A DNA stretch of 64,000 bases from Candidatus Saccharimonadia bacterium (lineage in GTDB: Bacteria > Patescibacteriota > Saccharimonadia > UBA4664). Where the stretch lies: NCBI GenBank assembly GCA_035479295.1, contig DATIIV010000020.1, positions 10,027-74,026 on the forward strand, read 5' to 3'. The notes under the pieces are model-generated. The model was not told where the DNA came from and made no database searches. It saw nothing but the letters and a program-made list of their open reading frames with translations. Below, piece after piece: positions 1-54,748 of this stretch. The position numbers were made by a program, and so were the translations under genes. Every line of letters starts with the position of its first letter. Position 1 is the first letter of the stretch.

Positions 1-1488
1 GAGCAGCGGCGCGGCCTCGTCATCGCCTCGACCGCCCAGGAGCACCATGGGGTGATGGATCGGCCGGTGCTGGAGTATGTGCTGGAGAATCTGCCGGAGT
101 ACGCCCGGCTGCATCATATCATCGAGACTCATCCCGAGACCATGGGCGACGACATGAAGCTGATCGGCCAGTACACCGATGCCTTGACGCGCTTTGGCGA
201 GCTCGGCTACTACGATATTCAGGAGCGGGCGCGCCAGGAGCTGCTTGATTTTCAGGTGCCGCCCGAGCGGATCGACGGCCCTATGGGCAAGCTGTCCGGC
301 GGCCAAAAGCGCTTTGTGGAGCTAGTTAAAGTGACACTGAGCGACGCTGACCTGGCGCTGATCGATGAGCCGACCAACCACATGGACTACGTGGCCAAAG
401 AGGCCTTCGTTGAGTGGCTCGAGGACGCTCAACAGGCCGTGGTGGTCATTACCCACGACCGCGATGTGCTGGCGGTGGTCGATCGCATTGTCGAGATCAA
501 AGATCACGGAGTCGCTAGTTTTGAGGGCAATTACGAGACCTACCTCAAGCAAAACGGTCGCACTACCATGAACGCGGTTGAGCAGTATGAGTTTGATCAG
601 CGCACCTTGGCCAACTTGCACAAGCAGGTGATGGAGGCTCGGCGCAAAAAAGGTATGGCGGCGGCCTCTAGCGCCACGCGGTTTCGCATTATGGAGGAGC
701 GGCTGCAGCGCCAGTACGATGCGCTCAAGAGCCGACTGCAGAAGCCCTCATTCTGGATCGATAGCGAGCAGCTCGACACCATGCAGAGCAAGGTGGTCGA
801 AAAATACGACCGCTACAAGGCCAAAAATATTCGCATTCAAACGCGCGGCGTAACCGAAGGCCAGCGTACGCTCGTTACCGTGGACAGCCTGTCGTTGGGC
901 TACGACGGCCCGCTGTTTGCTGGCCTGTCGCTGACGCTGCGCCAGGGCGAGCGACTGGAGCTCAAGGGCCGCAACGGCGTCGGCAAATCCACGCTGATCC
1001 GAGCGATTCTGGCTACGGCGACGGGCGGCCGGCTGGGCTCGCAGGTGTACGCCGGCACGATTGAGCTCGACCCCAAGGTGAGTATCGGCGTGTATGAGCA
1101 AGAGATCGACCCCAAGTATCTGCCGCTGCCACTAGCTACGGCCATCGCCCAGGTCTACGCCGAGCGCGGGGTGGCGGTCAGTGATCAGCGCGTTAAGCAA
1201 GTTATGTCCGATTACCTGTTCGACCCGCAACTCGATGGCAAACTCGAGATTGGCCGGCTGAGCGGCGGCCAAAAAGCCCGGTTCCAGCTCATCGCCATGC
1301 TCTGTCATAGCCCTAATCTGCTCATTTTGGACGAGCCCACCAATCACCTTGATCTGCCCTCGATCGAAGAGCTGGAGAAGGCGCTCGATCGCTACGCCGG
1401 CGCCATCCTCTACATCTCGCACGACTCATATTTTACGCGCGGGGTGGGCGGGGAAGTGGTGGAGATTACGTCAATTAATCAAAATTAG
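1..1488 (+). CDS. ABC-F family ATPase (tandem ABC domains), 5' end runs off the window
   Basis: Two ABC signature/Walker-B blocks (LSGGQKRFVEL...LALIDEPTNHMD and LSGGQKARFQL...LLILDEPTNHLD) with no TMD. The reading frame is open from nt 1, so the first Walker A lies upstream of the window. Confidence 0.75.
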   Translation, partial: EQRRGLVIASTAQEHHGVMDRPVLEYVLENLPEYARLHHIIETHPETMGDDMKLIGQYTDALTRFGELGYYDIQERARQELLDFQVPPERIDGPMGKLSGGQKRFVELVKVTLSDADLALIDEPTNHMDYVAKEAFVEWLEDAQQAVVVITHDRDVLAVVDRIVEIKDHGVASFEGNYETYLKQNGRTTMNAVEQYEFDQRTLANLHKQVMEARRKKGMAAASSATRFRIMEERLQRQYDALKSRLQKPSFWIDSEQLDTMQSKVVEKYDRYKAKNIRIQTRGVTEGQRTLVTVDSLSLGYDGPLFAGLSLTLRQGERLELKGRNGVGKSTLIRAILATATGGRLGSQVYAGTIELDPKVSIGVYEQEIDPKYLPLPLATAIAQVYAERGVAVSDQRVKQVMSDYLFDPQLDGKLEIGRLSGGQKARFQLIAMLCHSPNLLILDEPTNHLDLPSIEELEKALDRYAGAILYISHDSYFTRGVGGEVVEITSINQN

Positions 1489-1502
1489 CGTACAATACGG
1501 CT

Positions 1503-2906
1503 ATGAAGGGGCATCTCTACTTTATCGGGATTACCGGCCATGCCATTCGGGGACTGGCGCTGGCGGCGCGCGATAACGGCTATGAGGTGAGCGGCTTGGA
1601 CGAGACCGGCGCGCCGCCTGGCAGCGATTGGCTGGATGAGCGCGACATTCGCTGGAGTCGCCAGTTTGAGCCGGCGCAGCTGCACGACGTGACGGCCGTG
1701 ATTGTGACCGGCGCGCACGTCAGCGACGAGTATCCGGCCGTGGTGGAGGCGCGTCGGCGAGCTATTCCGATCAAGTCGTGGGCCCAGTGGGCGGGGGAGT
1801 TTGCGGCCGATAAGCGGGTGTTGGCGGTGGCCGGCACGCACGGCAAGACCACCACGACCTCGTTGATTACGTGGCTACTGGAGGCGGCGGGTCGGCGGCC
1901 AGACTTTCTGATTGGCATTAAGCCCTTTAATTTTGATTCGAGTGTGCGGCTGAGCGATGCGCCAGTGCTGGTGATCGAGGGCGACGAGTATCGCGCCTCA
2001 AATTTGGAGCCGCAAGCCAAATTGGAGTATTACCACCCCAATGTGCTGGTGCTAACGTCGGTGGAGCACGATCACCCCGACATGTACCCCGATTTGCAGT
2101 CGGTGATCGATCGGTTTAGTAGCGTGGTGGCGGCGCTGTCTGGCGACGGCCGGTTGGTGGTGTGGAATGGCAGCGAGACGGCGCTGCAGGTGGCGGCGAA
2201 GGCCTCGTGCGAGGTGGTGACCTACGGGCTCAAGGACGGCGATTACTCGGCCCGCGATGTGGGTTACTTGCCGGCCGGCCTTGAGTTTGACGTGCACCAC
2301 GACGGCCGATTACTGGGCCGGCTGGCCGTGCCGATGTACGGCCGCCACAATGTGCTCAATGCGCTGGCCGCCACGGTGGTGGCGCTGGGCGAGGGCCTAA
2401 CGTTCGCCGAGATTATGGCGGGCGCGGTTGGCTTTAAAGGCGCTTATCGTCGGTTTAATGTGCTGACGCCGGCCGGCGCGCCGATAACCGTGATCGATGA
2501 TTATGCCCACCACCCCACCGAGGTGGCAGCCACCATCGAGGCCGTCAAGCTGCACTTTGCTGGCCAGCGCCTGCTGGTGGTGTACCGGCCGCACACGTAT
2601 TCGCGTACCAAGGCGCTGCTGGCCGAGTACCGAGCCTCGTTTGGCCAGGCCGATCTGGTGTTTATGGCCGATGTGGAGGCCGCGCGCGAGTCGGCGGCCG
2701 ACCGCACGGTTAGTGGCGCCGACATTGTGGCCGGCCTAGGCGAGCAGGCGGTGTACGAACCCGACCGAGCGCGCCTGGCCGACCGGGTAGTAGCGGCCGC
2801 TCGCCCCGGCGACGTGGTGCTCTGTATGACCGTATCGGGCTACGACCGCATCGCCAATGAGCTGGCCGAGCGGCTCGGCGCCACCACCGGTGAGGCCGCC
2901 GCATGA
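1503..2906 (+). CDS. Mur ligase family protein, Mpl/MurC-like (UDP-N-acetylmuramate-peptide/L-Ala ligase)
   Basis: GTHGKTTTTSLI P-loop, EGDEY...LTSVEHDHPDMY and DDYAHHPTEV motifs typical of MurC/Mpl. The N-terminus YFIGITGHAIRGLA is Mpl-like. Confidence 0.7.
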   Translation: MKGHLYFIGITGHAIRGLALAARDNGYEVSGLDETGAPPGSDWLDERDIRWSRQFEPAQLHDVTAVIVTGAHVSDEYPAVVEARRRAIPIKSWAQWAGEFAADKRVLAVAGTHGKTTTTSLITWLLEAAGRRPDFLIGIKPFNFDSSVRLSDAPVLVIEGDEYRASNLEPQAKLEYYHPNVLVLTSVEHDHPDMYPDLQSVIDRFSSVVAALSGDGRLVVWNGSETALQVAAKASCEVVTYGLKDGDYSARDVGYLPAGLEFDVHHDGRLLGRLAVPMYGRHNVLNALAATVVALGEGLTFAEIMAGAVGFKGAYRRFNVLTPAGAPITVIDDYAHHPTEVAATIEAVKLHFAGQRLLVVYRPHTYSRTKALLAEYRASFGQADLVFMADVEAARESAADRTVSGADIVAGLGEQAVYEPDRARLADRVVAAARPGDVVLCMTVSGYDRIANELAERLGATTGEAAA

Positions 2907-42424: not shown

Positions 42425-43537
42425 TTAGGTAACCAGCGGCAGCTCAAACCAGAATGTGCTGCCGGTGCCCTCTGTGGAGTCAAAGCCGATCCGGCCACCG
42501 TGGTGCTCCACGAAGTACTTGGCGATGGCCAGCCCCACGCCCGACGAATCCGGCTGCAGCACCGAGGCGTTGGAGGCGCGAAAGAAGGCCGTAAACACGT
42601 TGCTCTGCTCGGCGGCCGGAATGCCGGCGCCGGTATCGGTGATCTCGAACCGGACCGCCTGATCGGTCTGTCGCAGCGAGCTGGTGATGGTGCCGTCGGT
42701 GCCGGTGTAGGCGGCGGCGTTCTCGGCCAGCTTCTCCAGCACCAGCCGAATGTCTTCCGGGTCGACGAACAGCGGATTAAGCGGTTGTTTGGGCGCAGTA
42801 TATTTGCAGGTAATGCCCTTAACCTTGCAGCTCTTCATCCACTCCACCATGATCGACTTCCAGAGGCTCTCGATCGAGGTCTTCTGCTTACTCAGCATTA
42901 CCCGGCCCTCTTCCATATCGATAACCAGCAGGAGGTCGCGAATGCGCGTCACCAGCTTCTGGTTGGCGTCGTAGGCAATGCGCAGGATCTCGCGCTGGGT
43001 TGGCTTAACTGCGCCAACTTCGCCGCCCAGCACATGCGCTAGATTCCAGCCCACCACCGTCAGCGGCGTACGTAGCTGGTGAGCCATAATGCCGATGAAC
43101 TTCTGCCGCAGCTCATTAAGATGGGTATTGCGGCGCTCGGCATCTTTTTTGGCATAGGCGTTTCTGAGAGCGGTGGGCAGACGCTGGAGGTTATCTTTTA
43201 GAATATAATCGTCGATACCAGCCTTGATAATCTCGACCACCGTGGCCTCAGGCAGCGCGCCGGTTACCAGCAAGAACGGCGCCTCGATCTGCTGCTGGCG
43301 CGTCAGGGTAAAGGCCTCCAGGCCGTTAAAGTCGGGCAGCGAGTAGTCGGACAGGATGACGTCGGGCCGCTCCTCATCGAGAGCCGCCACGAAATCGGCC
43401 TTGGTGCTAACTCGCCGCGCTGTAAAGGCGATTTCACCCTTCTTAAGTTCGTGTTGCACCAGCTCGGCGTCGGCGGCCACGTCCTCGAGCATAAGGATTT
43501 TGAGCGGCGGCGCTTTGATAGGAGATTGCTCGGTCAT
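42425..43537 (-). CDS. hybrid receiver-histidine kinase (REC-HisKA-HATPase_c)
   Basis: N-terminal receiver (LMLEDVAADAEL...DVILSDYSLPDFNG), H-box MAHQLRTPLTVV, and C-terminal ATPase G-boxes. Confidence 0.8.
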   Translation of the reverse strand: MTEQSPIKAPPLKILMLEDVAADAELVQHELKKGEIAFTARRVSTKADFVAALDEERPDVILSDYSLPDFNGLEAFTLTRQQQIEAPFLLVTGALPEATVVEIIKAGIDDYILKDNLQRLPTALRNAYAKKDAERRNTHLNELRQKFIGIMAHQLRTPLTVVGWNLAHVLGGEVGAVKPTQREILRIAYDANQKLVTRIRDLLLVIDMEEGRVMLSKQKTSIESLWKSIMVEWMKSCKVKGITCKYTAPKQPLNPLFVDPEDIRLVLEKLAENAAAYTGTDGTITSSLRQTDQAVRFEITDTGAGIPAAEQSNVFTAFFRASNASVLQPDSSGVGLAIAKYFVEHHGGRIGFDSTEGTGSTFWFELPLVT

Positions 43538-43539
43538 GG

Positions 43540-43983
43540 CTAGTTAGGCAGCCGGTTAATCGCCATCCAGTACAGGCCAGCCTGCGACAGCACCTCGACG
43601 AATTTATCAAAGTCGACCGGCTTCTGAATGTAGCTGTTGACGCCCAATTTGTAGCACTCCTTCAGGTCGGTATTCTCCTGCGATGAGGTGACCATAACGA
43701 CCGGGATCGACTTGGTATGGTCGTCGCTCTTAATTTTGCGCAGCACCTCAATGCCATTGACCTTGGGTAGTTTGAGGTCGAGCAGGACCACTTTGGGGCC
43801 CACCTCGGCGTTGCGGTCGGCGTAGCGTCCGGTAGCAAAAATGTACTCCAGCGCCTCCTGGCCGTCCGACACCGTAAAGATCTTGTTGGCCAAATTGCGC
43901 TTCTTGAAGGCGCGCAACGTTAGCTCCACATCGCTAGGGTTATCCTCGACCAGTAATATTTCTATTTCACTATAATTCTGCAT
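43540..43983 (-). CDS. single-domain response regulator (CheY/Rcp1-like receiver)
   Basis: [10 protein letters not shown]...[12 protein letters not shown]...MVTSS receiver motifs; no output domain. Confidence 0.85.
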
Positions 43984-45800
43984 TACGTCTCCTTCTGGTG
44001 GTTTTTATGATCATCGGTGCGGGGCAGGGTAAACGAGATCATGGCGCCTTCGCCCACCTTGCCCTCGGCCCAGACCCGGCCGCCGTGGCGAGTGACGATG
44101 CGCTTAATGATGGCCAGGCCCACGCCGGTGCCCTCAAAATCTTTCTGGTCATGTAGCCGCTGGAACACGCCAAACAGCTTATCAACAAAGGTCATATCAA
44201 AACCAGCACCATTGTCACGAACGTAGTAAATGATCTCGTGCGGCCCGGTTTTGGCACCGGCCTCAATAATGGCCGGCTGCTTGTGGCGGGTAAATTTAAT
44301 GGCATTCGAAAGCAAATTAGCCCAAACCTGGCGCACCAGCCCCGCGTCGGCCGGCACTTGCGGTAGATCGTCCAGCACAAACTTGATTGAGCGGTTGGGG
44401 TTTACTACTTTGAGCTCATCGAAGACCTCTTGCGCCAGCTTCTTCATATCGACCGGCTGCTTCTTAACCTCCTGCCGCCCCAGACGCGAGAAGGCCAACA
44501 GGTCATCGATGAGCGTCCCCATCTGTTGGGTGCTGGCAATAATGGTGCTGAGCAAGTGCTGGCCGTCGGCATCGATCTTGGTGGCATAATCCTCGGCCAA
44601 GATCTTGGAGAAGCCGTCGATGGCCCGCAGGGGCGCGCGCAGGTCGTGCGAGACCGAGTAGCTAAACGACTCTAGCTCTTTGTTGGTGTTCTCGAGCTGT
44701 TGGGTGCGCTCGGCTACCTTTTGCTCCAGATTGCCGCGCGCCTCCTGAAGCTGCTCCAGCATGTGGTTAAAGGTGGTAGCCAGGCCGCCGATCTCATCGC
44801 GGGAGAGCACCAGGGCCCGCTGGGCGGTGTCGCCGCCAGCGATGCGCTTGGCCACCACCGAGAGCTGGATGATCGGCCCCGTAATCGTCTGCACAAAGAA
44901 TAAGATGACCATAATCACAAACAGACTAAACATGAGCGTGACGATGAGAATGTTGTCGCGCAGCTGGTCGGCCGCCCGAAACACCTCGCTGGCATTGACC
45001 TTAGTAATCAAGGCAACATTGTAGGCGGGAATGTATTTGAGCGTGTAGAAGAATGGCGCCGATGCCGTAGTAACCAGCCCGCTACTGCTACCGGTATGGT
45101 TGGCCAGCGCCTTTACGATAGCTGGCGCCATCAGTTGTTGGCGCAGTTCGGCTTGCTGCGGATCGCTGGCCTTAAAGCGGCTGCTGCCCAGGGTCACGCT
45201 GCCGTCGGCCTGGCGTCGTGCAAACATAATGTCGCCGGTGGCGCCGAGTCCGGTATAGTCTTGCACGATAGTCGCTAGCTGCTGGCCTTGATCGATAAAC
45301 TCCAGTCGGCCCACCACGACGCCGTTAGTAGTAATGGGCTGCCGAATACTCACGGCCGGCAAGTCGTTATTGGGCAGCAAAAAGTCCACCGCTCCCGTCT
45401 GCGGCGGTGCGATCTGGCCGATCAGCTTGGGCTCGGTGGAGGCGATAATTCGGTTCTGCAGGTCGAGCACCGAGATCGAGTTAGTCTTCTCTAGGGCCCG
45501 CCGAACGCCCATCAGATAGCTATTTATCTGCTGCTGAGTAGCCTGGCTGGGATTGCGTTGATAGTCCGTCACCAAATCAATCAGGGTTGGCCGCGTCGCG
45601 GTTAACGTCACATCATCGCTATAGCCATTAATGAAGAGGTGGGTGCGGGACTCCTTAAAGGCGTTAATGTTCTGAACATTGTTGGTGGCCTCCTTGGTAA
45701 TGGCGGCGCGAGCCGAGACAAGCGTAAAGATACTGGTAAGCGTTAGCGGCATAACGGCTGTGAGCAAAAAGATAACGAGAAACTTGCTGCGAATTGTCAT
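43983..45800 (-). CDS. sensor histidine kinase with ~270-aa extracytoplasmic (Cache-like) domain, HAMP, HisKA, HATPase_c
   Basis: TM-periplasmic-TM architecture, HAMP ([27 protein letters not shown]), H-box [13 protein letters not shown] boxes. Confidence 0.85.
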
Positions 45801-46759
45801 GGGGCCACCACCTTCGCGCTGACTGTTCTGAGCCGCTTGATGCCGAGCGCCAGCAGCAAAAAGCCAAAGCCTTGCAACAAGATAAACGCAAACAATACCA
45901 GGAGCAAAGCCCCTAGGCCAATAGTAACTAATCGAGCGGCGCCCAGTGATAGTACGCTTTGCAGCAGAATCGAGCTAAAGATGATCGCCCATAATCCGTA
46001 CATTACGCGGGTGAGCGACTTAAAATAGTCAGTACTGGAGAGGTACGGCAGGAGGTCATTGAGGGTAAAGGCCACCGAGAAACCCAGCCACCAGGTTACA
46101 AACACCGGCACAATAATGGTGAGGACGATCAGCCAATCCGGTAGGTAGTAGCTGGCCAAGATTAGATTGCTTTGGGGTACCTGTCGGTTGGGATTGGTAA
46201 AGACTAAAAAGACGTAAAAAGCTCCGATCACCAAGATAATAATGGTCTTAATGATGGCGTCGCTCAACGGAGATTGCGCCATAATTTTGCGGTAAGCCGC
46301 CTTTAGCTGCTCGATGCCACGAAAGATCTCCCACACGCCAATGAGGAGCGGAAAAACATAGAGGTAGTTAGTAATAATAGTAATAACTGGTTTACTGATA
46401 GGCTCGGTAAAGTAGGGTCGGAGTGAACCAATGATGGCCGACACAACGAGGCCGATTACCACCCACCACAGACCACGGCGCAGGCCGGCCATGAGGGGCG
46501 CAAACTCCCTGCCCGCCGTGGCCTTGGACCTCAGGTAGTCGTCAAGCAAGGTGAGACCGTACACTCCCAACACCCAGGTGATAAGGTAGGGGATAGTGAG
46601 GGTAAGCCGTAGTAGCATGAGCTGGATTGGCTCGAGATGGATAGCGCTGCTGGTAGTAGGCGCAAAGCTGGTAAAACCCAGGTATAGCACGATAGCTACG
46701 CCAAGCAGACTATAATTGCGGCGGGCGGGGAACCAAAACGATTGAGCGGTTGTGGTCAT
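45797..46759 (-). CDS. hypothetical polytopic membrane protein
   Basis: At least eight hydrophobic helices. Confidence 0.45.
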   Translation of the reverse strand: MTTTAQSFWFPARRNYSLLGVAIVLYLGFTSFAPTTSSAIHLEPIQLMLLRLTLTIPYLITWVLGVYGLTLLDDYLRSKATAGREFAPLMAGLRRGLWWVVIGLVVSAIIGSLRPYFTEPISKPVITIITNYLYVFPLLIGVWEIFRGIEQLKAAYRKIMAQSPLSDAIIKTIIILVIGAFYVFLVFTNPNRQVPQSNLILASYYLPDWLIVLTIIVPVFVTWWLGFSVAFTLNDLLPYLSSTDYFKSLTRVMYGLWAIIFSSILLQSVLSLGAARLVTIGLGALLLVLFAFILLQGFGFLLLALGIKRLRTVSAKVVAP

Positions 46760-46772
46760 GGTGGCTCCGAGG

Positions 46773-47585
46773 TTAGCTTAAGGACATAGTTTTACTAGAG
46801 GGCTCATTCATGGTGGTAAAGCGTTCGTTGCTCTTGAGCACCTCGCTTAAGAAGTCAGCGAAGTACCCCCGGCCCACGGCCGCCGACACAATGCCACTGA
46901 CATCCTTGGGTAGGCACTTGCCGCCAAAGCCTCGCTTATTGGCAAAGACGCTGGAGAAGGCGCGTCCAACCCGCTCGTCGAGCAGCCAGCCTTCGCGCAC
47001 GCGGTGCCAATTAAGGCCGAACGTCTTGGTGATCTCGTAGAATTCATTAGCAAAGGTGACTTTGGCGGCCAGGTACGAGTTGGCCATATATTTAATGAGC
47101 TCAGCCTCGCTAGCGCTGCAACTATAGTAGGTGGCGTGCGGACCCATCACTGGCTCAAAGATGTCAAAGTAGTAGCCCACCTCGTCGTCGGGACCGCCCA
47201 CAATTACGAACGGCGTCTCGGCGATCGATTGATGGATCGGATTAAAATAAGTGCTCTCGCCAATGTACTCCGGCGAGAAGCAGATCTTTTTGCCGGTCTG
47301 TACCCGCAGGCGCTCGGTGGTAGTGGGTGGCACCGTCGATTTAATGAGAATGCGCGGATTATCGAGCCGCTTGAGCGCCCGCTCTACAATCGAAGTGTCG
47401 CACGAACCGTCCAGCCCGATCGGCGTGGGCACGCAGATGACGGCCAGCTCGCACTCCCGAATGGCTGCCTCCGGGTACTCAGCGTTGTGGGCCGGATCGT
47501 AGGTGGTGAGGTCGTAGTGCTGTCTCAGGAAGTCCTTAAACGCTTTGCCTACGTAGCCTTGACCGATAATGGCAATCTTCTTCAT
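46773..47585 (-). CDS. UDP-glucose/GDP-mannose dehydrogenase family protein, C-terminally short (~270 aa)
   Basis: KIAIIGQGYVGK Rossmann motif, SPEYIGEST, catalytic GFGGKCLPKD, but no UDP-binding C-terminal domain. Start at MKKIAII (AAGGAAGG ribosome-binding site) rather than the ORF-track 47708. Confidence 0.65.
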   Translation of the reverse strand: MKKIAIIGQGYVGKAFKDFLRQHYDLTTYDPAHNAEYPEAAIRECELAVICVPTPIGLDGSCDTSIVERALKRLDNPRILIKSTVPPTTTERLRVQTGKKICFSPEYIGESTYFNPIHQSIAETPFVIVGGPDDEVGYYFDIFEPVMGPHATYYSCSASEAELIKYMANSYLAAKVTFANEFYEITKTFGLNWHRVREGWLLDERVGRAFSSVFANKRGFGGKCLPKDVSGIVSAAVGRGYFADFLSEVLKSNERFTTMNEPSSKTMSLS

Positions 47586-47598
47586 TCTCACCCCTTCC

Positions 47599-47976
47599 TT
47601 ACGCACCGGCCTCTTGCAGCGCCTGAGCGATCTGTAGCCCCAGCTGACGCATCGAAACCTGCGATTTAACGATATATTCCTTAACGCCGTAGGCTTTGCC
47701 GGCCTCAATATCCTCGTTCTTCTCGAGGTTGCTCAAGATAAAGACCGGAATCTTGCTGCCCAAATTAACCCGGAGCTCTTGTAGCACCTGCAGCCCATTC
47801 TTGCGCGGCATAATAATGTCGAGCAGTAGCAGATCGACGGGCTGGGACTTAAGAACCTCAATGGTCTGCTCACCGTCCTCGGCTGTCACAACGTTAAATC
47901 CTAATCCTCTAACTTTCTTCGACAACAGCTTTAGTAAACTCGGCTCGTCTTCGGCAATGAGTATAGTTTTTGCCAC
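47599..47976 (-). CDS. orphan single-domain response regulator
   Basis: ILIAEDEPSLL...LLLLDIIMPRKNG...ILSN receiver motifs. Confidence 0.85.
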   Translation of the reverse strand: MAKTILIAEDEPSLLKLLSKKVRGLGFNVVTAEDGEQTIEVLKSQPVDLLLLDIIMPRKNGLQVLQELRVNLGSKIPVFILSNLEKNEDIEAGKAYGVKEYIVKSQVSMRQLGLQIAQALQEAGA

Positions 47977-49466
47977 GGTATTTTGTCCTTTCCTGTTACG
48001 GCTTTAATTACAATCGGCCACAGCCAGAACAGCATGAGGCAGACCCAGAACGTGCTAATGAGGAGAAGGCCGCTCAGGCCGTAGCGAACAAAGTTGTAGA
48101 CCAAGCAAAAGATGCCGCTGCCGGCCATAATGAGCTGCGGCAGCACCAGCCTGGCCTCGCGAGCACCATGGGCCAGCTTGGAAGTAACCTTGTAAGTCGG
48201 CACGGTGTGGCGGTGCAGGAGCGCCTTAATGGTGGCCATTTGGTAGGCCGGAAAGAGGCCAGCCCACACGCGCGACGAGAGCTGGCCGTGGCTGAGCCGG
48301 CCAAAGTAGGTGAGGGTAAAGAGCAGGTCGGGCAGGCGCGTCACTAGGTACCATAGGCCGCCGTGCACAATGGGGTCATTAAAGAGCAGCGAGTAAAAGT
48401 TGGCCACAAAGATACCGGGCAAAAAGAAGGCGCTTACCAGGTAACAGTAGCCGATCTCGAAGTAGTGCAGGCGCTGGCGCCAAGTGAGCCCCTTGCGGGT
48501 GAGCGGCTGCTGCCAAAAGAAGACGCGCAGCGTATCGAGCGCCCACGTGCCGCGCTGCTTGTAGACCTGCGAGATGTCGCTGGGCGCGGTGCCCTGGGTA
48601 TAAGGCTGCGTCACATACACGGTGCGGTAGCCGGCCGAGTGCATTAGGTAGCTCGTATGAAGGTCTTCCACCACGTTCCACTCGCTAAAGCCGCCGATCT
48701 CCTTGAGGTATTTGCGGGCGTAGATTACGCCCGAGCCGCAGCTAATGGCGGCATTGTCTTTATTTTTGCCGGCCTGCAAGTAGTCGTAAAAGAGGTGGTC
48801 GTGGTTAAAGTCGTCTTTATCGATAGTGAAGACCTGGCGCGAGGCTACAATGGCCACTTTGTCGCGCGAGAAGTGGCCGAGCAGATCGTCCAGGATGGCC
48901 GGATTAACCACATTATCGGCGTCGAGCACCAGAATGTAGGGCGCGTACGACTGAGTGAGGGCATAGTTGAGATTGGCGGCTTTATAGCGCTTAGCGGCAC
49001 GGTCCGGTCGGCTCAGATAGTGACAATGGTACTTCTTGGCCAGCGCTTTTACCTCAGCGCGACCGCCGTCGTCGAGTAGATAAACAGTGGTATTGGGGTG
49101 GTCGATCTCGGTGGCGGCCTTAACGGTATTCTCGATCATGCCCAGCGGCTCGTTCACCATAGGAATAAACACGTCGACCGGGCTGCGCAGCGAGTAGGTG
49201 CCGCCAACCAGCTCGTACTGGCGCGTCCAGTGGTTAAAGACTACTAGCAGCGTAAAGAGGCCCACTAGCACCTCCAGCACCCAGAAACACCAGCCGAACC
49301 AACCATGAACGTTAAGCGCCAAGAAGGTGAGGTAGATTAAGGTGGTGCCGCTGCTAGCCAGACCCAGCTTGCGGGACTTATCGAGATTCCAGAGCCAAGA
49401 TATAATATGCATAGCATACGCAGTATAAGGCATAACGCTTATGCTTAAATTGGCGTATAGGTGCAA
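47931..49466 (-). CDS. family-2 glycosyltransferase, processive cellulose-synthase-like (membrane)
   Basis: D, DxD (LDADN) and QRGTW (QxxRW) motifs plus TM helices on both sides. Confidence 0.8.
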   Translation of the reverse strand: MHLYANLSISVMPYTAYAMHIISWLWNLDKSRKLGLASSGTTLIYLTFLALNVHGWFGWCFWVLEVLVGLFTLLVVFNHWTRQYELVGGTYSLRSPVDVFIPMVNEPLGMIENTVKAATEIDHPNTTVYLLDDGGRAEVKALAKKYHCHYLSRPDRAAKRYKAANLNYALTQSYAPYILVLDADNVVNPAILDDLLGHFSRDKVAIVASRQVFTIDKDDFNHDHLFYDYLQAGKNKDNAAISCGSGVIYARKYLKEIGGFSEWNVVEDLHTSYLMHSAGYRTVYVTQPYTQGTAPSDISQVYKQRGTWALDTLRVFFWQQPLTRKGLTWRQRLHYFEIGYCYLVSAFFLPGIFVANFYSLLFNDPIVHGGLWYLVTRLPDLLFTLTYFGRLSHGQLSSRVWAGLFPAYQMATIKALLHRHTVPTYKVTSKLAHGAREARLVLPQLIMAGSGIFCLVYNFVRYGLSGLLLISTFWVCLMLFWLWPIVIKAVTGKDKIPWQKLYSLPKTSRVY

Positions 49467-49514
49467 TATTTGGGCTATCGATAGTTAATCTTTTGTTAAG
49501 AAGCCTAAAAAAAC

Positions 49515-50396
49515 CTAATGAGTAAGCTGATAAACGCGCACATAATCGATCTGAAGTCTGGCCGGAAAATGAGTCTTGGCATTAGCATTGCCGGGTAGGG
49601 TGCCTCCGACGGCCAGGTTAATGATGAGCTCCATTGGCTTGTTGGTGACGTTACTGCCAGTCAGCGTCTTAAGATGCCGACCGTCCGCGTACCAGTCGAT
49701 ACGGCCGGGCTGCCAGTTGACGGCATAGGTGTGCCAGCCGGCAGTAAAGTCGCCGGCGCTGTAGGTGGTGGCGTCTTTTTGCGGATGGCCGGCGGCGTCG
49801 GGCCAGTGGTAGGTCGCTAGCAGCTGGTGCGGCGCGCTGCCCACCAGCTCCATAGCGTCTATCTCCGGTGGCCAGCTGTGGTCGGTGGGCAGCAGCCAAA
49901 AGGCCGGCCAGAGGCCTTGGCCGCCGTCGGTCTTGAGCCGCGCCTCCATGTAGCCATAGCTGGTCGACCACTTAGGCGCAGCGTCGTAGCTGGGCCGGCC
50001 GGTCGAGATCAAGCCCGAGATGTAGGGGTAGGTCTGCTCATACGAGCCGCTCCAGCCGAGTGTCGGCCGAGGTTGGGCAGTGAGAGTGGCATGGCCGTTG
50101 CTGACGCTAACTTGGCTAGCTCGGTACCATTCTTGTTCAAAGTTGCCGTTGTTGGTGCAGCCGTCGTGAGCCGCGTCGTACCAGTCGTAGCAGGTTACCC
50201 AGCGGTCGGCGTTAAGCCGTGAGCCATCGAACTCATCGTCGAAGACCAGTTGCCAATGCCGGCCGGCCGGTGGCGCTGGCAGCCCGCTGCTCGTCTCGGG
50301 CAAAATTACCGTCAGAACTGCCAAGAGACCAAGGCTCATCGCTAGTCCGATCGGCAATGCGCCCCGGGTTGGCGCCTTATAAAACATATTTTGCAT
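49515..50396 (-). CDS. GH16 family glycoside hydrolase (beta-glucanase/laminarinase-like), secreted
   Basis: Signal peptide; catalytic EIDAMELVG (E-x-D-x-x-E) motif. Confidence 0.75.
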   Translation of the reverse strand: MQNMFYKAPTRGALPIGLAMSLGLLAVLTVILPETSSGLPAPPAGRHWQLVFDDEFDGSRLNADRWVTCYDWYDAAHDGCTNNGNFEQEWYRASQVSVSNGHATLTAQPRPTLGWSGSYEQTYPYISGLISTGRPSYDAAPKWSTSYGYMEARLKTDGGQGLWPAFWLLPTDHSWPPEIDAMELVGSAPHQLLATYHWPDAAGHPQKDATTYSAGDFTAGWHTYAVNWQPGRIDWYADGRHLKTLTGSNVTNKPMELIINLAVGGTLPGNANAKTHFPARLQIDYVRVYQLTH

Positions 50397-50427
50397 TGTA
50401 AAAGATCATCGTGCTAATGTTAAGGCG

Positions 50428-52056
50428 ATGAGTAAACGTTGTAAATTATACTACATACTCGTGTCAGTGCTGTCAGCGGCAATTATCGGATTATTTGCGC
50501 TCTGGTGGTTCAATTTAGCTCATATTCCGCATAACTTTAGCGGCCGCTGGCATCTCATTGATGCACTGTTGTATCTGGCTGTCAGTTACGTTATTTGGCA
50601 TCCCATGGTAATGATGGTGCTGGCCTGGGTGGTGGCGCTGCACATCAAGGAGCTGCCCAAACTGCGGCCGGCTCGGGGTGCACGCGTGGCTTTCATTACC
50701 AACTTTGTGCCGGCCTCGGAGCCCATTGAGCTACTCGAAAAAAACTTGCCGGCCATGGTGAAGGCCTCCTACAAGCACGATACTTGGTTGCTCGACGAGG
50801 GCGATGACCCGGCCGTTAAAGCGCTCTGCGAGCGACTAGGCGTGCACCACTACAGCCGGCGCGGCCAGCCCGACTACAACACGGTTGGCGGTAAGTTTGC
50901 CGCCAAGACCAAGGGTGGCAATCATAACTCTTGGTACGACCGCCACGGTGCCAACTACGACTTTGTGGCCCAGATCGATACCGACTTTATTCCGCGCAAA
51001 GATTTTCTCACCAAGACCCTGGGCTATTTTAAGAACCCTAAGATCGCCTTTGTGGGCACGCCGCAAATTTATGGCAATACCGCTAAATCGCTGATTGCTC
51101 GAGGTGCGGCCGAGCAATCGTATATTTTTTATGGACCGTTCTTGCGTGGCCTCTGTGGTCTCGATAGCTCGCTCTTGATCGGCGCCAACCACATTATCCG
51201 GGTGGCGGCGCTCAAGAGCGTCGATCATTACAGTGCGCACATCACCGAGGACCTGCTAACAGGCATGAAGCTCCACGCCGACGGCTGGCAGAGTGTCTAC
51301 GTGAGCGAACCGCTGGCCGTGGGCGAAGGCCCCACCGCGTGGCGGCCGTACTTTAATCAGCAAATGCGGTGGGCTTACGGCTGCATCGATATTTTGTGGC
51401 ACCACAGCCCGCGGTTGCTCCGGCGCATGTCGTACCGCCGAGCCATCTACTACGCCTGGCTGCAGCAGTACTACTTTACGGGTCTCGCCATGGCGCTGGG
51501 TATTATTGGCTTGGTGCTCTACTTTGGGCTGGGCATTAGTACGGCTACACTCGATATGCGGCAATTTTTGCTGGTATACCTGCCAGCTATCTCGATCTGT
51601 GGCTTTATGGCGCTGTGGCTGCAGCGGTTTAATGTGCGGCCGCGGCAAGAGCGCGGGCTAATGGTGGCCGGGGCTATTGCTAGCTTGGCGGCCTGGCCAA
51701 TCTTCTTTCTAGCCTTTATTTGCGTGCTACGGCGCAAGCACCTCGTTTATAAAGTTACGCCCAAGGGTATGTTTAATAAGCCCAGCCACGAGCTACATAT
51801 CTTTAAGCCGCACTTTGTGGTCGCACTCATTGGGGGCCTGGCCCTGGCCTCGTCTTTTTTTACACATCGGCAATCGTGGGTGATGATGTTTTGGGCCGGC
51901 TGCATCACTGGCTCAATGGCGTTATTGCCCTTTATGGAGGACATATATCAGGTTTCGTTGCGTGTTCGCTCGGCGATTCTGCTGAGAGCGGCTAGGCTTA
52001 AGCGCTGGCGGTTGATAAAACAGCCAAGTCCGGCCCAACCGCAGGGCGGCGCGTAG
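50428..52056 (+). CDS. family-2 glycosyltransferase, processive cellulose-synthase-like (membrane)
   Basis: DTDFIP, TEDLLT and QQMRWAYG (QxxRW) motifs with flanking TM helices. Confidence 0.8.
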   Translation: MSKRCKLYYILVSVLSAAIIGLFALWWFNLAHIPHNFSGRWHLIDALLYLAVSYVIWHPMVMMVLAWVVALHIKELPKLRPARGARVAFITNFVPASEPIELLEKNLPAMVKASYKHDTWLLDEGDDPAVKALCERLGVHHYSRRGQPDYNTVGGKFAAKTKGGNHNSWYDRHGANYDFVAQIDTDFIPRKDFLTKTLGYFKNPKIAFVGTPQIYGNTAKSLIARGAAEQSYIFYGPFLRGLCGLDSSLLIGANHIIRVAALKSVDHYSAHITEDLLTGMKLHADGWQSVYVSEPLAVGEGPTAWRPYFNQQMRWAYGCIDILWHHSPRLLRRMSYRRAIYYAWLQQYYFTGLAMALGIIGLVLYFGLGISTATLDMRQFLLVYLPAISICGFMALWLQRFNVRPRQERGLMVAGAIASLAAWPIFFLAFICVLRRKHLVYKVTPKGMFNKPSHELHIFKPHFVVALIGGLALASSFFTHRQSWVMMFWAGCITGSMALLPFMEDIYQVSLRVRSAILLRAARLKRWRLIKQPSPAQPQGGA

Positions 52057-52128: not shown

Positions 52129-52857
52129 CTAGGCGCCGTGCTTGGCTATGAACCGCCTTGTGCACTCCAAAAGGTATGCTTGGTTCTTAAGGTTCAGCCG
52201 GAAGAACCCACCGAATACCTCATGCGGTCGAAGCTCAGCGCTACAGAGTCGATCGTCGCCCCGATGCGGGTGCGTGAAGATCAACGTGCTGCTCGGGTCA
52301 GTGTCGGCAAGAGCCATATGGTCGGGCGTCACCGACCAGGTCTGGTGGCCTGGAATGATGCTGGCGCACCGGGCCATTGCCACCTGTCTGGCGATGTCTG
52401 GCGCGAGGCAGCCGTTGGCAACCAGCGCTATGCTGGTGACGTTGTGAGCTGTGGCGAGCCTGGCTGCGGCCGCGATCTCTTGCTGCGGGTCCTGTGAGCT
52501 GGTGTCAGTAACGGCGGCGTCGAGCAGCTCATCGAGCCGGGACTGCCCGATTCTGTCTGCCAGCTCACGGTGATCGCGGATGGCATCGAACTCGATCAGC
52601 TCGTCCCGGCGCAAAAGCAGCAGTTCTCGCACGGCATCGGCTTCGGCCCGGCCGTCGGACCTGTGCGAGGCACCGGAACCCATGCCGATGAACGCCACGC
52701 TCTTCAATCCGTGATTGAGCGCACACAATATCGCCATGGGCAAGCTGCCCAATTGCTGCTGCTCCGGGTCGCCCCAGAGCAAGTCCTTCCAGCCGATGGT
52801 GTTGGTGTGAAGGCCGCAAATCCAGACTGCTCTCTCTGTCGTCATGCGATGCTCCAT
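52129..52857 (-). CDS. hypothetical protein, DUF218/YdcF-like (paralogous pattern to 40169-40774)
   Basis: AVWICGLHTN...VAFIGMGSGAS...AEADAVREL resembles the DUF218 core. Confidence 0.35.
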   Translation of the reverse strand: MEHRMTTERAVWICGLHTNTIGWKDLLWGDPEQQQLGSLPMAILCALNHGLKSVAFIGMGSGASHRSDGRAEADAVRELLLLRRDELIEFDAIRDHRELADRIGQSRLDELLDAAVTDTSSQDPQQEIAAAARLATAHNVTSIALVANGCLAPDIARQVAMARCASIIPGHQTWSVTPDHMALADTDPSSTLIFTHPHRGDDRLCSAELRPHEVFGGFFRLNLKNQAYLLECTRRFIAKHGA

Positions 52858-53332: not shown

Positions 53333-54748
53333 CTAGGCGGCCCGGCGCAGCTGGCTAACGGCTGCGATGGGTTCGCCCGTGAGGGACACCTCGGCCTGGA
53401 AGACGCGGCCGCGGTAGACGGCACGGCCGTCGTGGATGTGGATGGGCTCGATGGCGAAGGGCTGGTCGCCGTCGAGGTAGGTAACGACCGCCAGGCCCTG
53501 CTGCCAGTTCTCGAACCGGCTGACCGGACGGCCGGCGTTGCTGGCCGCTCCGTTGGCGCTGGGTACTGCGCCGTCGACCCGGCAGAGGCAGCCGGGGGTG
53601 AAGGCCATCAGGTTGCGGCCCGAGCTGTGGTCGGTCTTCCACTGCATCTCGATGCGGTGAACGTGGCCGAAGATGCTCGAGGCGCCCTCGTCGTCGACCA
53701 CGGCCTTGGCCGTTGAGCCGTTGGACCGCACGATCTTGCCGTGTTGGCAGTTGAGCCGGTCGTTGATCCAGTAGCGGGCGGCCGGGTAGCCGTCCACGTA
53801 CTGCACACCCAGCTCGGCCAGCCGCAGCAAGTGCTGGATGCTCATGACCGGCCAGGAAGCCGGCTGGTTGGCCTGGCGCAGCCCGAAGGCGGCCCGGGCG
53901 TTGTCGAGAATCCAGCGGAGCAACCGGTAGTCGTGGTTGCCCTCGAGCAGTACCCGCTCCTCGGCGTTGGGTGCCGCCGCCTCCTGCTCGGCCAGGAACA
54001 GGTGGCCGCGGTCGAGGCCGGCCTGCATGGTGGTGGCGAAGGTGGGCAGCTGCACGAACCGGCTCAGATTCGGCAGGTCCAGGAAATCACCCAGGTTGAC
54101 CACCTTGTGCGGGTTGACGAAGCGCATGATCTGCAGCGCCACGTTCATGGCCTGCTCGTCGTGCATCGCCACTAGCTCGCCGGTGGTCGGGTCCTGCCAG
54201 TAGCCGATCTGCGGGTCGGGCAGGACCACCGCCACCTTGAGCGGACCGGTGCGCGGCTTGGGCACGTGCACGTGGCGGATCACCACGGGCGCGGCCGGCT
54301 GCACCACGGGCCAGGCGGGACCTTCGGCCGCACCAGCCGGGCTCATCACCACCGAGGTGACGTCCAGGTCGTGGATCTCGGCCTCGCCGGCGTTGTTCTT
54401 GGTCAGCATCTGGTAGGTGCCCACGCGCACCTTCTCGACCTTGCCGATCTGGTCGGCGTCGATGCCAGCGTCGATCAGCAGTTTGGCCACGCGATTGATG
54501 GTGGCGGCGTCCGGCACGGTGCCGGCGGCGGTCTGGTCGCTCGCCTCGGCCTCCGTCATGGCCTCGCTGCCGTCGTGGAAGTTCGGGTCGGGCCCGACTC
54601 CGCCGGCCTTGGCATAGGCCCTGGCGCGTAGCTCCAGTAGTCGTACGATGTGGTGCTCCGGGAAGGCCTCCGTCAGCTGCTGCGGCGTCAAGCACGCCAG
54701 CAGTCGCGCGGTGGTCTTGGCCGTCAGCGGGAGCCTCTTCTTCTCCAC
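53333..54748 (-). CDS. calcineurin-like metallophosphoesterase with ~180-aa N-terminal extension
   Basis: GDFLD, GNHD and GHVH phosphoesterase motifs in order. Confidence 0.65.
   Translation of the reverse strand: MEKKRLPLTAKTTARLLACLTPQQLTEAFPEHHIVRLLELRARAYAKAGGVGPDPNFHDGSEAMTEAEASDQTAAGTVPDAATINRVAKLLIDAGIDADQIGKVEKVRVGTYQMLTKNNAGEAEIHDLDVTSVVMSPAGAAEGPAWPVVQPAAPVVIRHVHVPKPRTGPLKVAVVLPDPQIGYWQDPTTGELVAMHDEQAMNVALQIMRFVNPHKVVNLGDFLDLPNLSRFVQLPTFATTMQAGLDRGHLFLAEQEAAAPNAEERVLLEGNHDYRLLRWILDNARAAFGLRQANQPASWPVMSIQHLLRLAELGVQYVDGYPAARYWINDRLNCQHGKIVRSNGSTAKAVVDDEGASSIFGHVHRIEMQWKTDHSSGRNLMAFTPGCLCRVDGAVPSANGAASNAGRPVSRFENWQQGLAVVTYLDGDQPFAIEPIHIHDGRAVYRGRVFQAEVSLTGEPIAAVSQLRRAA

Follow-up and report, generated by a model that had tools for sequence, protein, structure and literature searches.

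A BcsA-like synthase paired with a single-domain receiver in a putative beta-glucan locus of a Saccharimonadia bacterium

Introduction

Cyclic di-GMP (c-di-GMP) is the post-translational switch of almost all synthase-dependent exopolysaccharide systems, among them those for cellulose, alginate, poly-N-acetylglucosamine (PNAG), Pel and mixed-linkage glucan. The synthases BgsA of S. meliloti, which makes a mixed-linkage beta-glucan and is activated by c-di-GMP, and CrdS of Agrobacterium, which makes curdlan, are family 2 glycosyltransferases (GT2) similar to the cellulose synthase BcsA that produce beta-1,3-containing glucans. Here we describe a nine-gene locus from a Candidatus Saccharimonadia bacterium (GenBank assembly GCA_035479295.1, contig DATIIV010000020.1, positions 10,027 to 74,026). 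It encodes two BcsA-like synthases (GT2a and GT2b), a secreted hydrolase (GH16), two histidine kinases (HKsens and RECHK), two single-domain receivers (REC125 and REC147), a dehydrogenase-like protein and a membrane protein (MEM320). The 64-kb stretch that was analysed is referred to as the window; coordinates are positions in it, and the region under study spans 42425–52056.

A BcsA-like synthase without a PilZ domain is known from the CslA-GlxA-CslZ beta-glucan system of Streptomyces (PMC8892547). In Methanobacteriaceae, receiver (REC) domains are fused to BcsA-like glycosyltransferases (PF13641); this MTH_548 type is confined to three archaeal genera (Galperin et al. 2018, PMC5847659). In Anabaena, the receiver DevR acts with HepK in controlling the heterocyst polysaccharide, by a mechanism that is still unclear (bioRxiv 10.64898/2026.04.08.717354). 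In the literature on Saccharibacteria, Patescibacteria and the Candidate Phyla Radiation (CPR), no description of a cellulose-synthase-like system was found. Saccharimonadia are obligate episymbionts with genomes of about 1 Mb.

We propose that the locus of this monoderm-type CPR bacterium encodes a synthase-dependent system for an extracellular beta-glucan. Two kinases acting in a cascade would feed a dedicated phospho-receiver, and this receiver would gate GT2a post-translationally. The probability of this reading is estimated at roughly 0.55. The evidence that carries it is the strict co-localisation of GT2a with REC125, together with the gene content, folds and motifs of the locus.

Results and Discussion

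Conservation of the GT2a–REC125 pair

The GTG start codon of REC125 at 47976 lies upstream of the GT2a stop at 47931, so that the two genes overlap by 46 nt (47931–47976). REC125 has its own ribosome-binding site (RBS), AGGAAAGGA, 9 nt upstream of the GTG, and its phospho-acceptor Asp53 is located in the motif LLLLD (47818–47832). The overlap had been noticed in the original prediction and is real. It recurs identically in the loci L084, L001 and L085; in L023 the overlap is 55 nt.

The distribution of the pair was assessed in a first set of 80 species-representative genome loci carrying GT2a relatives, the six-frame open reading frames (ORFs) of which were searched with the window proteins. 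Every locus with a GT2a homologue scoring at least 472 bits (at least 48% identity) contains a REC125-type receiver directly adjacent to the synthase gene, within 0–120 nt. The pair is present in 18 distinct genomes: the window together with L084, L001, L002 (the same as L003 and L008), L004–L007, L009–L016, L023 (the same as L032), L058 and L085. Most of them belong to Saccharibacteria; a Roizmanbacteria metagenome-assembled genome (MAG) and some MAGs labelled Gammaproteobacteria are also included. The REC125 orthologues score 92–139 bits in the first-set loci and 178 bits in L085. The receiver gene is located downstream on the same strand in 10 genomes, either overlapping the GT2a stop or within about 80 nt of it, and divergently upstream, 49–119 nt from GT2a, in the other eight. 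No receiver was found within 1 kb of the synthase gene in any of the 62 loci whose GT2a relatives score lower. Other CPR, Woesearchaeota, Deltaproteobacteria and Nitrospirota are among the sources of these loci, and so is L017, the contig of which ends at the gene and leaves no flank to assess. A REC125-type receiver was likewise absent from 80 loci selected through GT2b. None of the remaining receivers encoded alongside the pair exceeds 73 bits when compared with REC125, and the GT2a-adjacent receiver therefore constitutes a distinct orthologue group. The pair also occurs in loci that contain no kinase gene (L016 and L011).

In 17 non-redundant REC125 orthologues, conservation extends to the phospho-acceptor Asp, the residues of the acidic pocket, the Ser/Thr and the Lys. 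Since all the phospho-site residues are kept, the orthologues are phosphorylatable. Neither a DNA-binding output domain nor a response regulator bearing one is encoded in these clusters, and the receiver domain PF00072 is absent from the best 120 GT2a homologues. The original prediction had placed the synthases under direct receiver control. The comparative data lend this claim real support, as the pair is found in two gene arrangements and in every genome bearing the orthologues; the physical contact between receiver and synthase is what we infer from it.

An HK-REC-GT2a-REC-GT2b block is present at both ends of the 543-kb contig CAWDVI010000003.1 (L023 and L032), and in the L032 copy GT2a is broken into two ORFs. 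The likely cause of this duplication is that the assembled ends of a circular genome overlap, with a sequencing error in one copy.

The GT2a synthase

Both GT2 proteins had been predicted to be processive and BcsA-like. In agreement with this, cellulose synthase catalytic subunits are the best matches of both in the PDB and in NCBIfam. The closest PDB match of GT2a is BcsA of E. coli (130 bits), and its NCBIfam scores are 183 bits for CelA (TIGR03030; equivalog cut-off 699), 49 for PgaC and 37 for NodC. The AlphaFold2 model of GT2a, built with 26 homologues, reached a pLDDT of 89.4 and a pTM of 0.88. In the Foldseek comparison the model gave TM-scores (TMq) of 0.84 with E. coli BcsA (9b8v_E) and 0.81 with R. 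sphaeroides BcsA (4p00_A), followed by plant CesA (about 0.75) and the hyaluronan synthases (about 0.5). The membrane-channel architecture of BcsA is thereby predicted for GT2a with high confidence, and we take the protein to be a processive synthase. Because the model superposes on BcsA, GT2a does not lack the transmembrane (TM) channel, the absence of which had been named as grounds for abandoning the prediction.

The catalytic motifs of GT2a are DDG, DAD, VED (48657–48671) and QRGTW (48543–48557), and the gating loop reads YKVTSK (48177–48194). With regard to the TED/QxxRW signature, TED is thus replaced by VED and QxxRW by QRGTW. In the GT2a family the position before the Trp is occupied by T, Q, L, I or V, and by Arg in only 2 of the 80 loci. 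The loss of the QxxRW hallmark, giving the pattern QRx(T/Q/L/I/V)W, spans the whole GT2a family. In BcsA, the Arg preceding this Trp contacts uridine diphosphate (UDP). The Thr and Lys of the FxVTxK-type gating loop are invariant in the GT2a and GT2b alignments, and both proteins stop two TM helices past the loop. No Pfam match to PilZ or BcsB was obtained in the 18 window proteins scanned. Judged by PilZ, BcsB and the CelA equivalog score, neither GT2a nor GT2b would be classed as a bona fide c-di-GMP-dependent BcsA.

The possibility that the longer, distant GT2a relatives carry PilZ, which would have suggested that a receiver had replaced it, was considered and rejected, since these proteins carry SPOR, Cds6_C or PMT_2 domains. 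As the longer relatives bear these other C-terminal domains, the whole GT2a family is without PilZ. The SPOR domain, which binds peptidoglycan, occurs in L035, L037 and L039; the NTF2-like Cds6_C domain in L041 and L047; and the glycosyltransferase module PMT_2 in L061. The relatives concerned come from Deltaproteobacteria, Nitrospirota and Anaerolineales.

All 17 REC-associated GT2a proteins contain, without variation, the motif R64-x3-L-x-GG-x2-S-x-R76, located at about 49185–49223 on the minus strand of the window. It is missing from 12 CPR relatives that have no receiver, which show a one-residue deletion at this site. The motif is part of the linker that joins TM2 to the glycosyltransferase domain on the cytosolic side. 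As a lead only, residues 64–76 are put forward as a candidate docking site for REC125.

GT2b, GH16 and the two-synthase arrangement

The catalytic motifs of GT2b are all canonical: DEG, DTD (DTDF, 50977–50988), TED (51244–51258) and QQMRW (51358–51372), with the gating loop YKVTPK (51748–51765). Its best phmmer match in the PDB is BcsA of R. sphaeroides (91 bits over residues 161–463, which include the TM region). The NCBIfam scores are 125 bits for CelA (TIGR03030), against the cut-off of 699, and 21 bits for PgaC. By sequence, these matches place GT2b among the BcsA-like proteins; like GT2a, it has no PilZ domain. The two synthases had been described as paralogous; both are indeed BcsA-like, but they share just 24% identity.

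The GT2b family is widespread in Saccharimonadia. A second set of 80 metagenome loci was picked through GT2b, and 24 of these, in which each flank extends over 2.5 kb or more, could be assessed. A second BcsA-like GT2 is adjacent to GT2b or fused with it in 15 of the 24 assessable loci, and a GH16 gene is located within 2.5 kb in eight. In six loci of the set, a GT2b-type synthase and a second, complete BcsA-like GT2 are joined in tandem within a single ORF of about 1070 aa (Table 1). The gene order in which GT2b faces a GH16-GT2a-REC series is kept in the window, L001 and L085, with 63–73% identity, a range that includes L086 for GT2b-GH16. The flanking of GH16 by synthases, on which the original prediction had relied, is present here and in L001 and L085; the adjacency of GH16 to GT2b is common without being universal (8 of the 24 assessable loci). 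In L086, from Microsaccharimonas, GT2b faces the order GH16-CHIM_prot-GT2c and the receiver is absent. The gene between GH16 and this third type of BcsA-like GT2 in L086 (5389–6984, minus strand) encodes a 531-aa PF27792 (CHIM_prot) protein. In the Roizmanbacteria MAG L011, a GH26-like gene (1466–2548, minus strand; 32.5 bits) occupies the GH16 slot between GT2b and GT2a-REC. The GT2b-selected loci, together with the arrangements in L001, L085, L086 and L011, show that two synthases and a hydrolase are a recurrent design in Saccharimonadia. The receiver goes specifically with the GT2a lineage.

The product of the GH16 gene matches PF00722 with 87.8 bits (cut-off 22) and has an N-terminal hydrophobic signal or anchor. 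Its best PDB match is the endo-beta-1,3-glucanase 2vy0 of P. furiosus (130 bits). All of the top 12 PDB matches are endo-1,3-beta-glucanases or laminarinases, and the lichenases score far lower. The motif EIDAME (49848–49865) aligns to the catalytic EIDIME of 2vy0 (ExDxxE). The assignment as a secreted GH16 endo-beta-glucanase is borne out by these data, and by profile, ExDxxE motif and closest PDB relatives the enzyme is of the laminarinase type. Pure cellulose is not a known substrate of GH16 enzymes. Since the nearest relatives of GH16 are endo-beta-1,3-glucanases, a polymer containing beta-1,3 linkages is favoured as the substrate of the hydrolase. This fits the beta-1,3-containing glucan of the original prediction, whether curdlan-like, of mixed linkage or other.

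Kinases and receivers

HKsens is composed of TM1, an extracytoplasmic domain of about 255 aa and unknown fold, TM2, HAMP, HisKA with the H-box SHDLRAPL, and HATPase. With the LvrA C-terminal model its kinase core reaches 265 bits, which is under the cut-off of that model. The sensor region had been called Cache-like; no match to Cache or to any other Pfam domain was obtained there even at E<=5, and the description is not retained. The H-boxes SHDLRAPL and AHQLRTPL of the kinases and the phospho-residues of the receivers are present in the translations. Judged by the HisKA H-boxes with HATPase and by the receiver site residues, the cluster encodes a two-component signalling system.

The start of REC147 overlaps the stop of HKsens by 1 nt. 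The best PDB matches of REC147 are 5brj (146 bits) and 5ic5 (140 bits), followed by RcpB, RcpA and Rcp1, and by these matches it is assigned to the phytochrome-response-regulator class. The comparison with Rcp1-type systems made in the original prediction therefore holds for REC147, which is of the RcpA/RcpB/Rcp1 type by sequence, but not for HKsens, which has no GAF/PHY module.

The kinase usually found beside GT2a and the receiver in other genomes is a PAS-HisKA-HATPase protein of about 365–550 aa. The core of RECHK (residues 139–368) scores 97–121 bits against such neighbouring PAS kinases in L002, L004, L005, L006, L009, L023 and L085. As RECHK carries a receiver domain where the others have PAS, it may be placed downstream of another kinase. 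In L004, GT2a is flanked by an orthologue of REC147 (184 bits) and by one of the HKsens kinase core (318 bits). A match to the histidine phosphotransfer (Hpt) domain was found in none of the cluster proteins with Pfam or NCBIfam. The missing Hpt domain argues against the typical multistep His-Asp-His-Asp relay that had been supposed. The signalling architecture fits a two-kinase cascade or a branched two-component system (TCS).

Proposed mechanism

The system may be regarded as two modules. Module A would comprise GT2b, a second BcsA-like synthase, which is GT2a in this locus, and the secreted GH16. The role of the hydrolase would be to trim or remodel the growing glucan, which would contain beta-1,3 linkages, in the way that BcsZ acts on cellulose. 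Module B would consist of GT2a and its dedicated receiver REC125. In the first step HKsens would sense an envelope signal, possibly together with MEM320. It would then phosphorylate REC147, the receiver domain of RECHK, or both, and RECHK would in turn phosphorylate REC125. In the last step, phosphorylated REC125 would dock on the cytosolic face of GT2a and turn polymerisation on or off. Gating by phosphorylated REC125 would be the counterpart of the control of BcsA by c-di-GMP and PilZ. Independent support comes from the archaeal REC-BcsA-like fusions listed in a published census of domains (PMC5847659).

A broader scenario is offered tentatively and seems to us rather less likely than this mechanism. 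In one CPR clade, a stand-alone phospho-receiver may have taken over the allosteric gate formed elsewhere by PilZ and c-di-GMP. GT2a and GT2b, working as a hetero-pair, would synthesise a surface glucan of mixed linkage or with beta-1,3 linkages, which the episymbionts would deploy on an envelope signal.

Gene organization of the locus

The coordinates of the nine genes are listed in Table 1.

Table 1. Genes of the locus in the window, and tandem synthase ORFs of other genomes
Feature	Position	Strand	Description
GT2b	50428..52056	+	BcsA-like processive GT2, 542 aa; transcribed divergently from GH16
GH16	49515..50396	-	Secreted or membrane-anchored endo-beta-1,3(4)-glucanase, 293 aa
GT2a	47931..49412	-	BcsA-like GT2, predicted to be channel-forming; 493 aa from ATG 49412; TTG 49466 is an alternative start
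REC125	47599..47976	-	Single-domain receiver, 125 aa, GTG start; Pfam REC 77.7 bits
Dehydrogenase-like protein	46773..47585	-	UDPG/GDP-Man-dehydrogenase family, 270 aa; ORF also listed from TTG 47708
MEM320	45797..46759	-	Polytopic membrane protein, 320 aa
HKsens	43983..45800	-	TM-sensor-HAMP-HisKA-HATPase kinase, 605 aa (Pfam)
REC147	43540..43983	-	Single-domain receiver, 147 aa (Pfam)
RECHK	42425..43537	-	REC-HisKA-HATPase kinase, 370 aa (Pfam)
Tandem synthase ORFs	L088:6953-10171, L090:3565-6801; also L087, L091, L092, L094		GT2b-type synthase fused to a second BcsA-like GT2

All nine ORFs are present at 42425–52056, and their Pfam domains agree with the description given in the original prediction. 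The three quoted motifs QRGTW, QQMRW and EIDAME were located, and independent gene calls in a second assembly of the same organism (GCA_964451975.1, locus L084) match the gene model of the window. The gene content and domains first described are thereby confirmed. The eight minus-strand genes are transcribed in the order GH16, GT2a, REC125, dehydrogenase-like gene, MEM320, HKsens, REC147 and RECHK, and are separated by 48–102, -46, 13, 13, -4, -1 and 2 nt, respectively. This arrangement is operon-like, and the genes may well be co-transcribed. Scans with promoter and terminator consensus patterns revealed nothing that convincingly splits the minus-strand set; the counts were not meaningfully above those of shuffled sequences, and every minus-strand terminator-like site falls within a gene. 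No further REC or HK genes are present elsewhere in the 64-kb window.

Two ORFs neighbour GT2b, 52129–52857 (minus strand, 242 aa) and 53333–54748 (minus strand, 471 aa). A Pfam search up to E<=5 gave no match for either of them. The gene calls of L084 also include both, and L001 has genes for trehalose-6-P synthase and phosphatase at this place instead.

The dehydrogenase-like protein and MEM320

The ORF of the dehydrogenase-like protein, when read from TTG 47708, overlaps REC125. The gene most likely starts at ATG 47585, behind the RBS AGGAAGGGG; the resulting protein begins with MKKIAIIGQGYVG and has an intact Rossmann motif GxGxxG. It contains PF03721 (partial, with a shortened N-domain) and PF00984, and its GGKCLPKD aligns with the catalytic-Cys region of the UDP-glucose dehydrogenases. 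No match to the C-terminal UDP-binding domain PF03720 was obtained in this protein. Its score against TIGR03026 is 136.7, below the cut-off of 189.8, and the alignment to 3vtf ends at residue 314 of 444. On these scores the protein would not be classed as a UDP-glucose 6-dehydrogenase. The gene had been described as truncated, and a pseudogene was also considered. Both were rejected: nearly all of the best 120 homologues are 255–300 aa long, so that the protein is a full-length member of a large family of about 260 aa, and the 13-nt gap to the next gene leaves no space for a C-terminal domain. The family is found in Streptomyces (including plasmids), Oscillospiraceae, Uhrbacteria and others, and one 418-aa member, P0182, is fused to NUDIX. 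The gene was found in none of the related synthase loci and is therefore probably a passenger outside the conserved system.

The product of the MEM320 gene has no Pfam or NCBIfam match. Its AlphaFold2 model (pLDDT 92.7) is an eight-helix bundle, for which the fold search of the PDB gave no significant match (best TMq 0.41, E>=0.02). The family is uncharacterised and comprises 553 cluster representatives. In one homologue, P0330 (1016 aa), the protein is fused to PAS-HisKA-HATPase-REC-REC; this is the single kinase fusion found. The stop of MEM320 overlaps the start of HKsens (ATGA). The P0330 fusion and the ATGA overlap suggest, weakly, that MEM320 is a sensory input or accessory protein of HKsens. 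A role as an export component was considered and rejected in view of the missing Pfam and PDB fold matches and of the lone kinase fusion.

Alternative explanations

Several observations weigh against gating of GT2a by REC125 within a glucan system. PilZ-less BcsA-like synthases function without a dedicated switch elsewhere, as in the case of Streptomyces CslA (PMC8892547). In the divergent-upstream arrangement a kinase/receiver operon begins with REC125, so that the adjacency of this gene to GT2a could reflect the whole TCS and not the receiver alone. GH16 adjoins GT2b in only about a third of the assessable loci (8/24), and in L011 it is replaced by the GH26-like gene. Since the Arg of QxxRW is absent from GT2a and VED stands in the place of TED, the donor, the product or even the activity of GT2a could differ from those of BcsA. 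It is conceivable, though we consider it doubtful, that REC125 is a phosphate sink or connector in a branched TCS. The true output would then be located elsewhere, for example in an unlinked DNA-binding regulator, pili or attachment, the synthases would be merely co-regulated or co-inherited, and GT2a would be ungated. The loci hold up to five single-domain receivers with one or two kinases, as is typical of sink and branched networks, and REC125 heads the divergent operon in about half of the genomes. GT2a is nevertheless always touched by a REC125 orthologue and not by the other receivers, the pair survives without a kinase within 10 kb, as in L016, and in 10 genomes REC125 overlaps or directly follows the GT2a stop codon. 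The existence of archaeal REC-BcsA-like fusions also speaks for an effect of the receiver on the synthase.

An unlikely explanation is that the genes do not form one exopolysaccharide machine. GH16 would then be a nutritional or host-directed laminarinase, the products of the GT2 proteins would be unrelated glycans of the envelope, such as a glycolipid, a wall glycopolymer or a beta-polymer of a sugar other than glucose, and their proximity would result from the compaction of a CPR genome of about 1 Mb. The irregular occurrence of GH16, both in the GT2b loci and in L011, would be in line with such separate functions, as would the non-canonical QRGTW and VED of GT2a, the peptidoglycan-binding SPOR domains on its distant relatives, and the CelA scores of 183 and 125 bits against the cut-off of 699. 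These points are opposed by the conserved order of GT2b and GH16-GT2a-REC in four genomes (L086 for GT2b-GH16), by the presence of a hydrolase gene between both synthases even where its family differs (L011), and by the fusion of GT2b to a second synthase, which argues for a joint role. It is very improbable that GT2a and REC125 are one fused protein, with the 46-nt overlap arising from a sequencing frameshift or a programmed frameshift site. The reading frames do overlap, and REC-BcsA-like fusions are known in Methanobacteriaceae. Against this, independent assemblies and species (L084, L001, L085 and L023) show the overlap and frames, REC125 has its own GTG start and the AGGAAAGGA RBS, the receiver is encoded on the opposite strand in eight genomes, PF00072 occurs in 0 of 120 GT2a homologues, and the GT2a tail (residues 481–493) is predicted by AlphaFold2 to be disordered. 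The preferred explanation is the gating of GT2a by a separate receiver.

Significance

If this reading is true, the conserved synthase–receiver pair would be a phosphorylation-based alternative to c-di-GMP that is minimal and genetically compact. Although their genomes measure only about 1 Mb, Saccharimonadia keep in a single locus a hydrolase, two synthases and as many as seven signalling genes. This argues in favour of an important, regulated surface glucan that may serve in host attachment or protection. Asp53 of REC125 and the 64–76 motif of GT2a can be used as an entry point to envelope control in CPR bacteria. Three uncharacterised families are worth annotating: the QRx(T/Q)W synthases, the eight-helix MEM320 proteins and the dehydrogenase-like proteins of about 260 aa.

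Comparison with known systems

The locus shares with BcsA/BcsZ of R. sphaeroides and E. coli a membrane-bound processive GT2 of the same predicted fold, the D, DxD and (T/V)ED motifs, the FxVTxK-type gating loop and a secreted endoglucanase gene. Unlike BcsA, the window synthases have no PilZ domain, the locus contains neither BcsB nor BcsC, and GT2a has QRGTW for QxxRW. Furthermore, the hydrolase belongs to GH16 (beta-1,3/1,3-1,4) and not to GH8, and the proposed regulatory partner of the synthase is a phospho-receiver in place of c-di-GMP. The likeness to BgsA and CrdS would lie in the product class suggested by GH16; BgsA differs in being activated by c-di-GMP, and a partner-switching control has also been described for mixed-linkage glucan. 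The Streptomyces CslA-GlxA-CslZ system resembles the locus in combining a PilZ-less BcsA-like synthase in a monoderm with a glucan hydrolase alongside. It differs in having no receiver or TCS genes attached and in its other accessory proteins, such as the GlxA oxidase.

HepK-DevR of Anabaena and EpsW of the Myxococcus eps locus are comparable in that output-less single-domain response regulators are genetically tied to exopolysaccharide production. These pathways, in contrast, are Wzx/Wzy- or ABC-dependent, and their receivers lack a strict pairing with a single synthase gene. The NCBIfam matches to this system are weak (41 bits for REC147 with the EpsW model and 25 bits for GT2a with the EpsU model). 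With Cph1-Rcp1 and the bacteriophytochrome-RcpA/B systems the locus shares the receiver class of REC147 and its translational coupling to a kinase with an SHDLRAPL-type H-box. HKsens differs from Cph1 in being a two-TM envelope sensor with HAMP and without the GAF/PHY photosensory module.

The MTH_548 type is alike at the domain level, as a receiver is coupled there to a cellulose-synthase-like GT2, which implies direct phospho-control. In the archaea the two are fused, whereas in the window and its relatives REC and GT2 are encoded by two neighbouring genes, which differ in reading frame or lie on opposite strands. To our knowledge, neither the MTH_548-type fusions nor the CPR pair has been characterised experimentally. 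PilZ-less BcsA-like synthases, single-domain receivers tied to polysaccharide loci and REC-BcsA-like fusions are thus already known. What is new here is the split, strictly co-localised synthase–receiver pair in CPR bacteria, within a locus of two synthases and a GH16 hydrolase.

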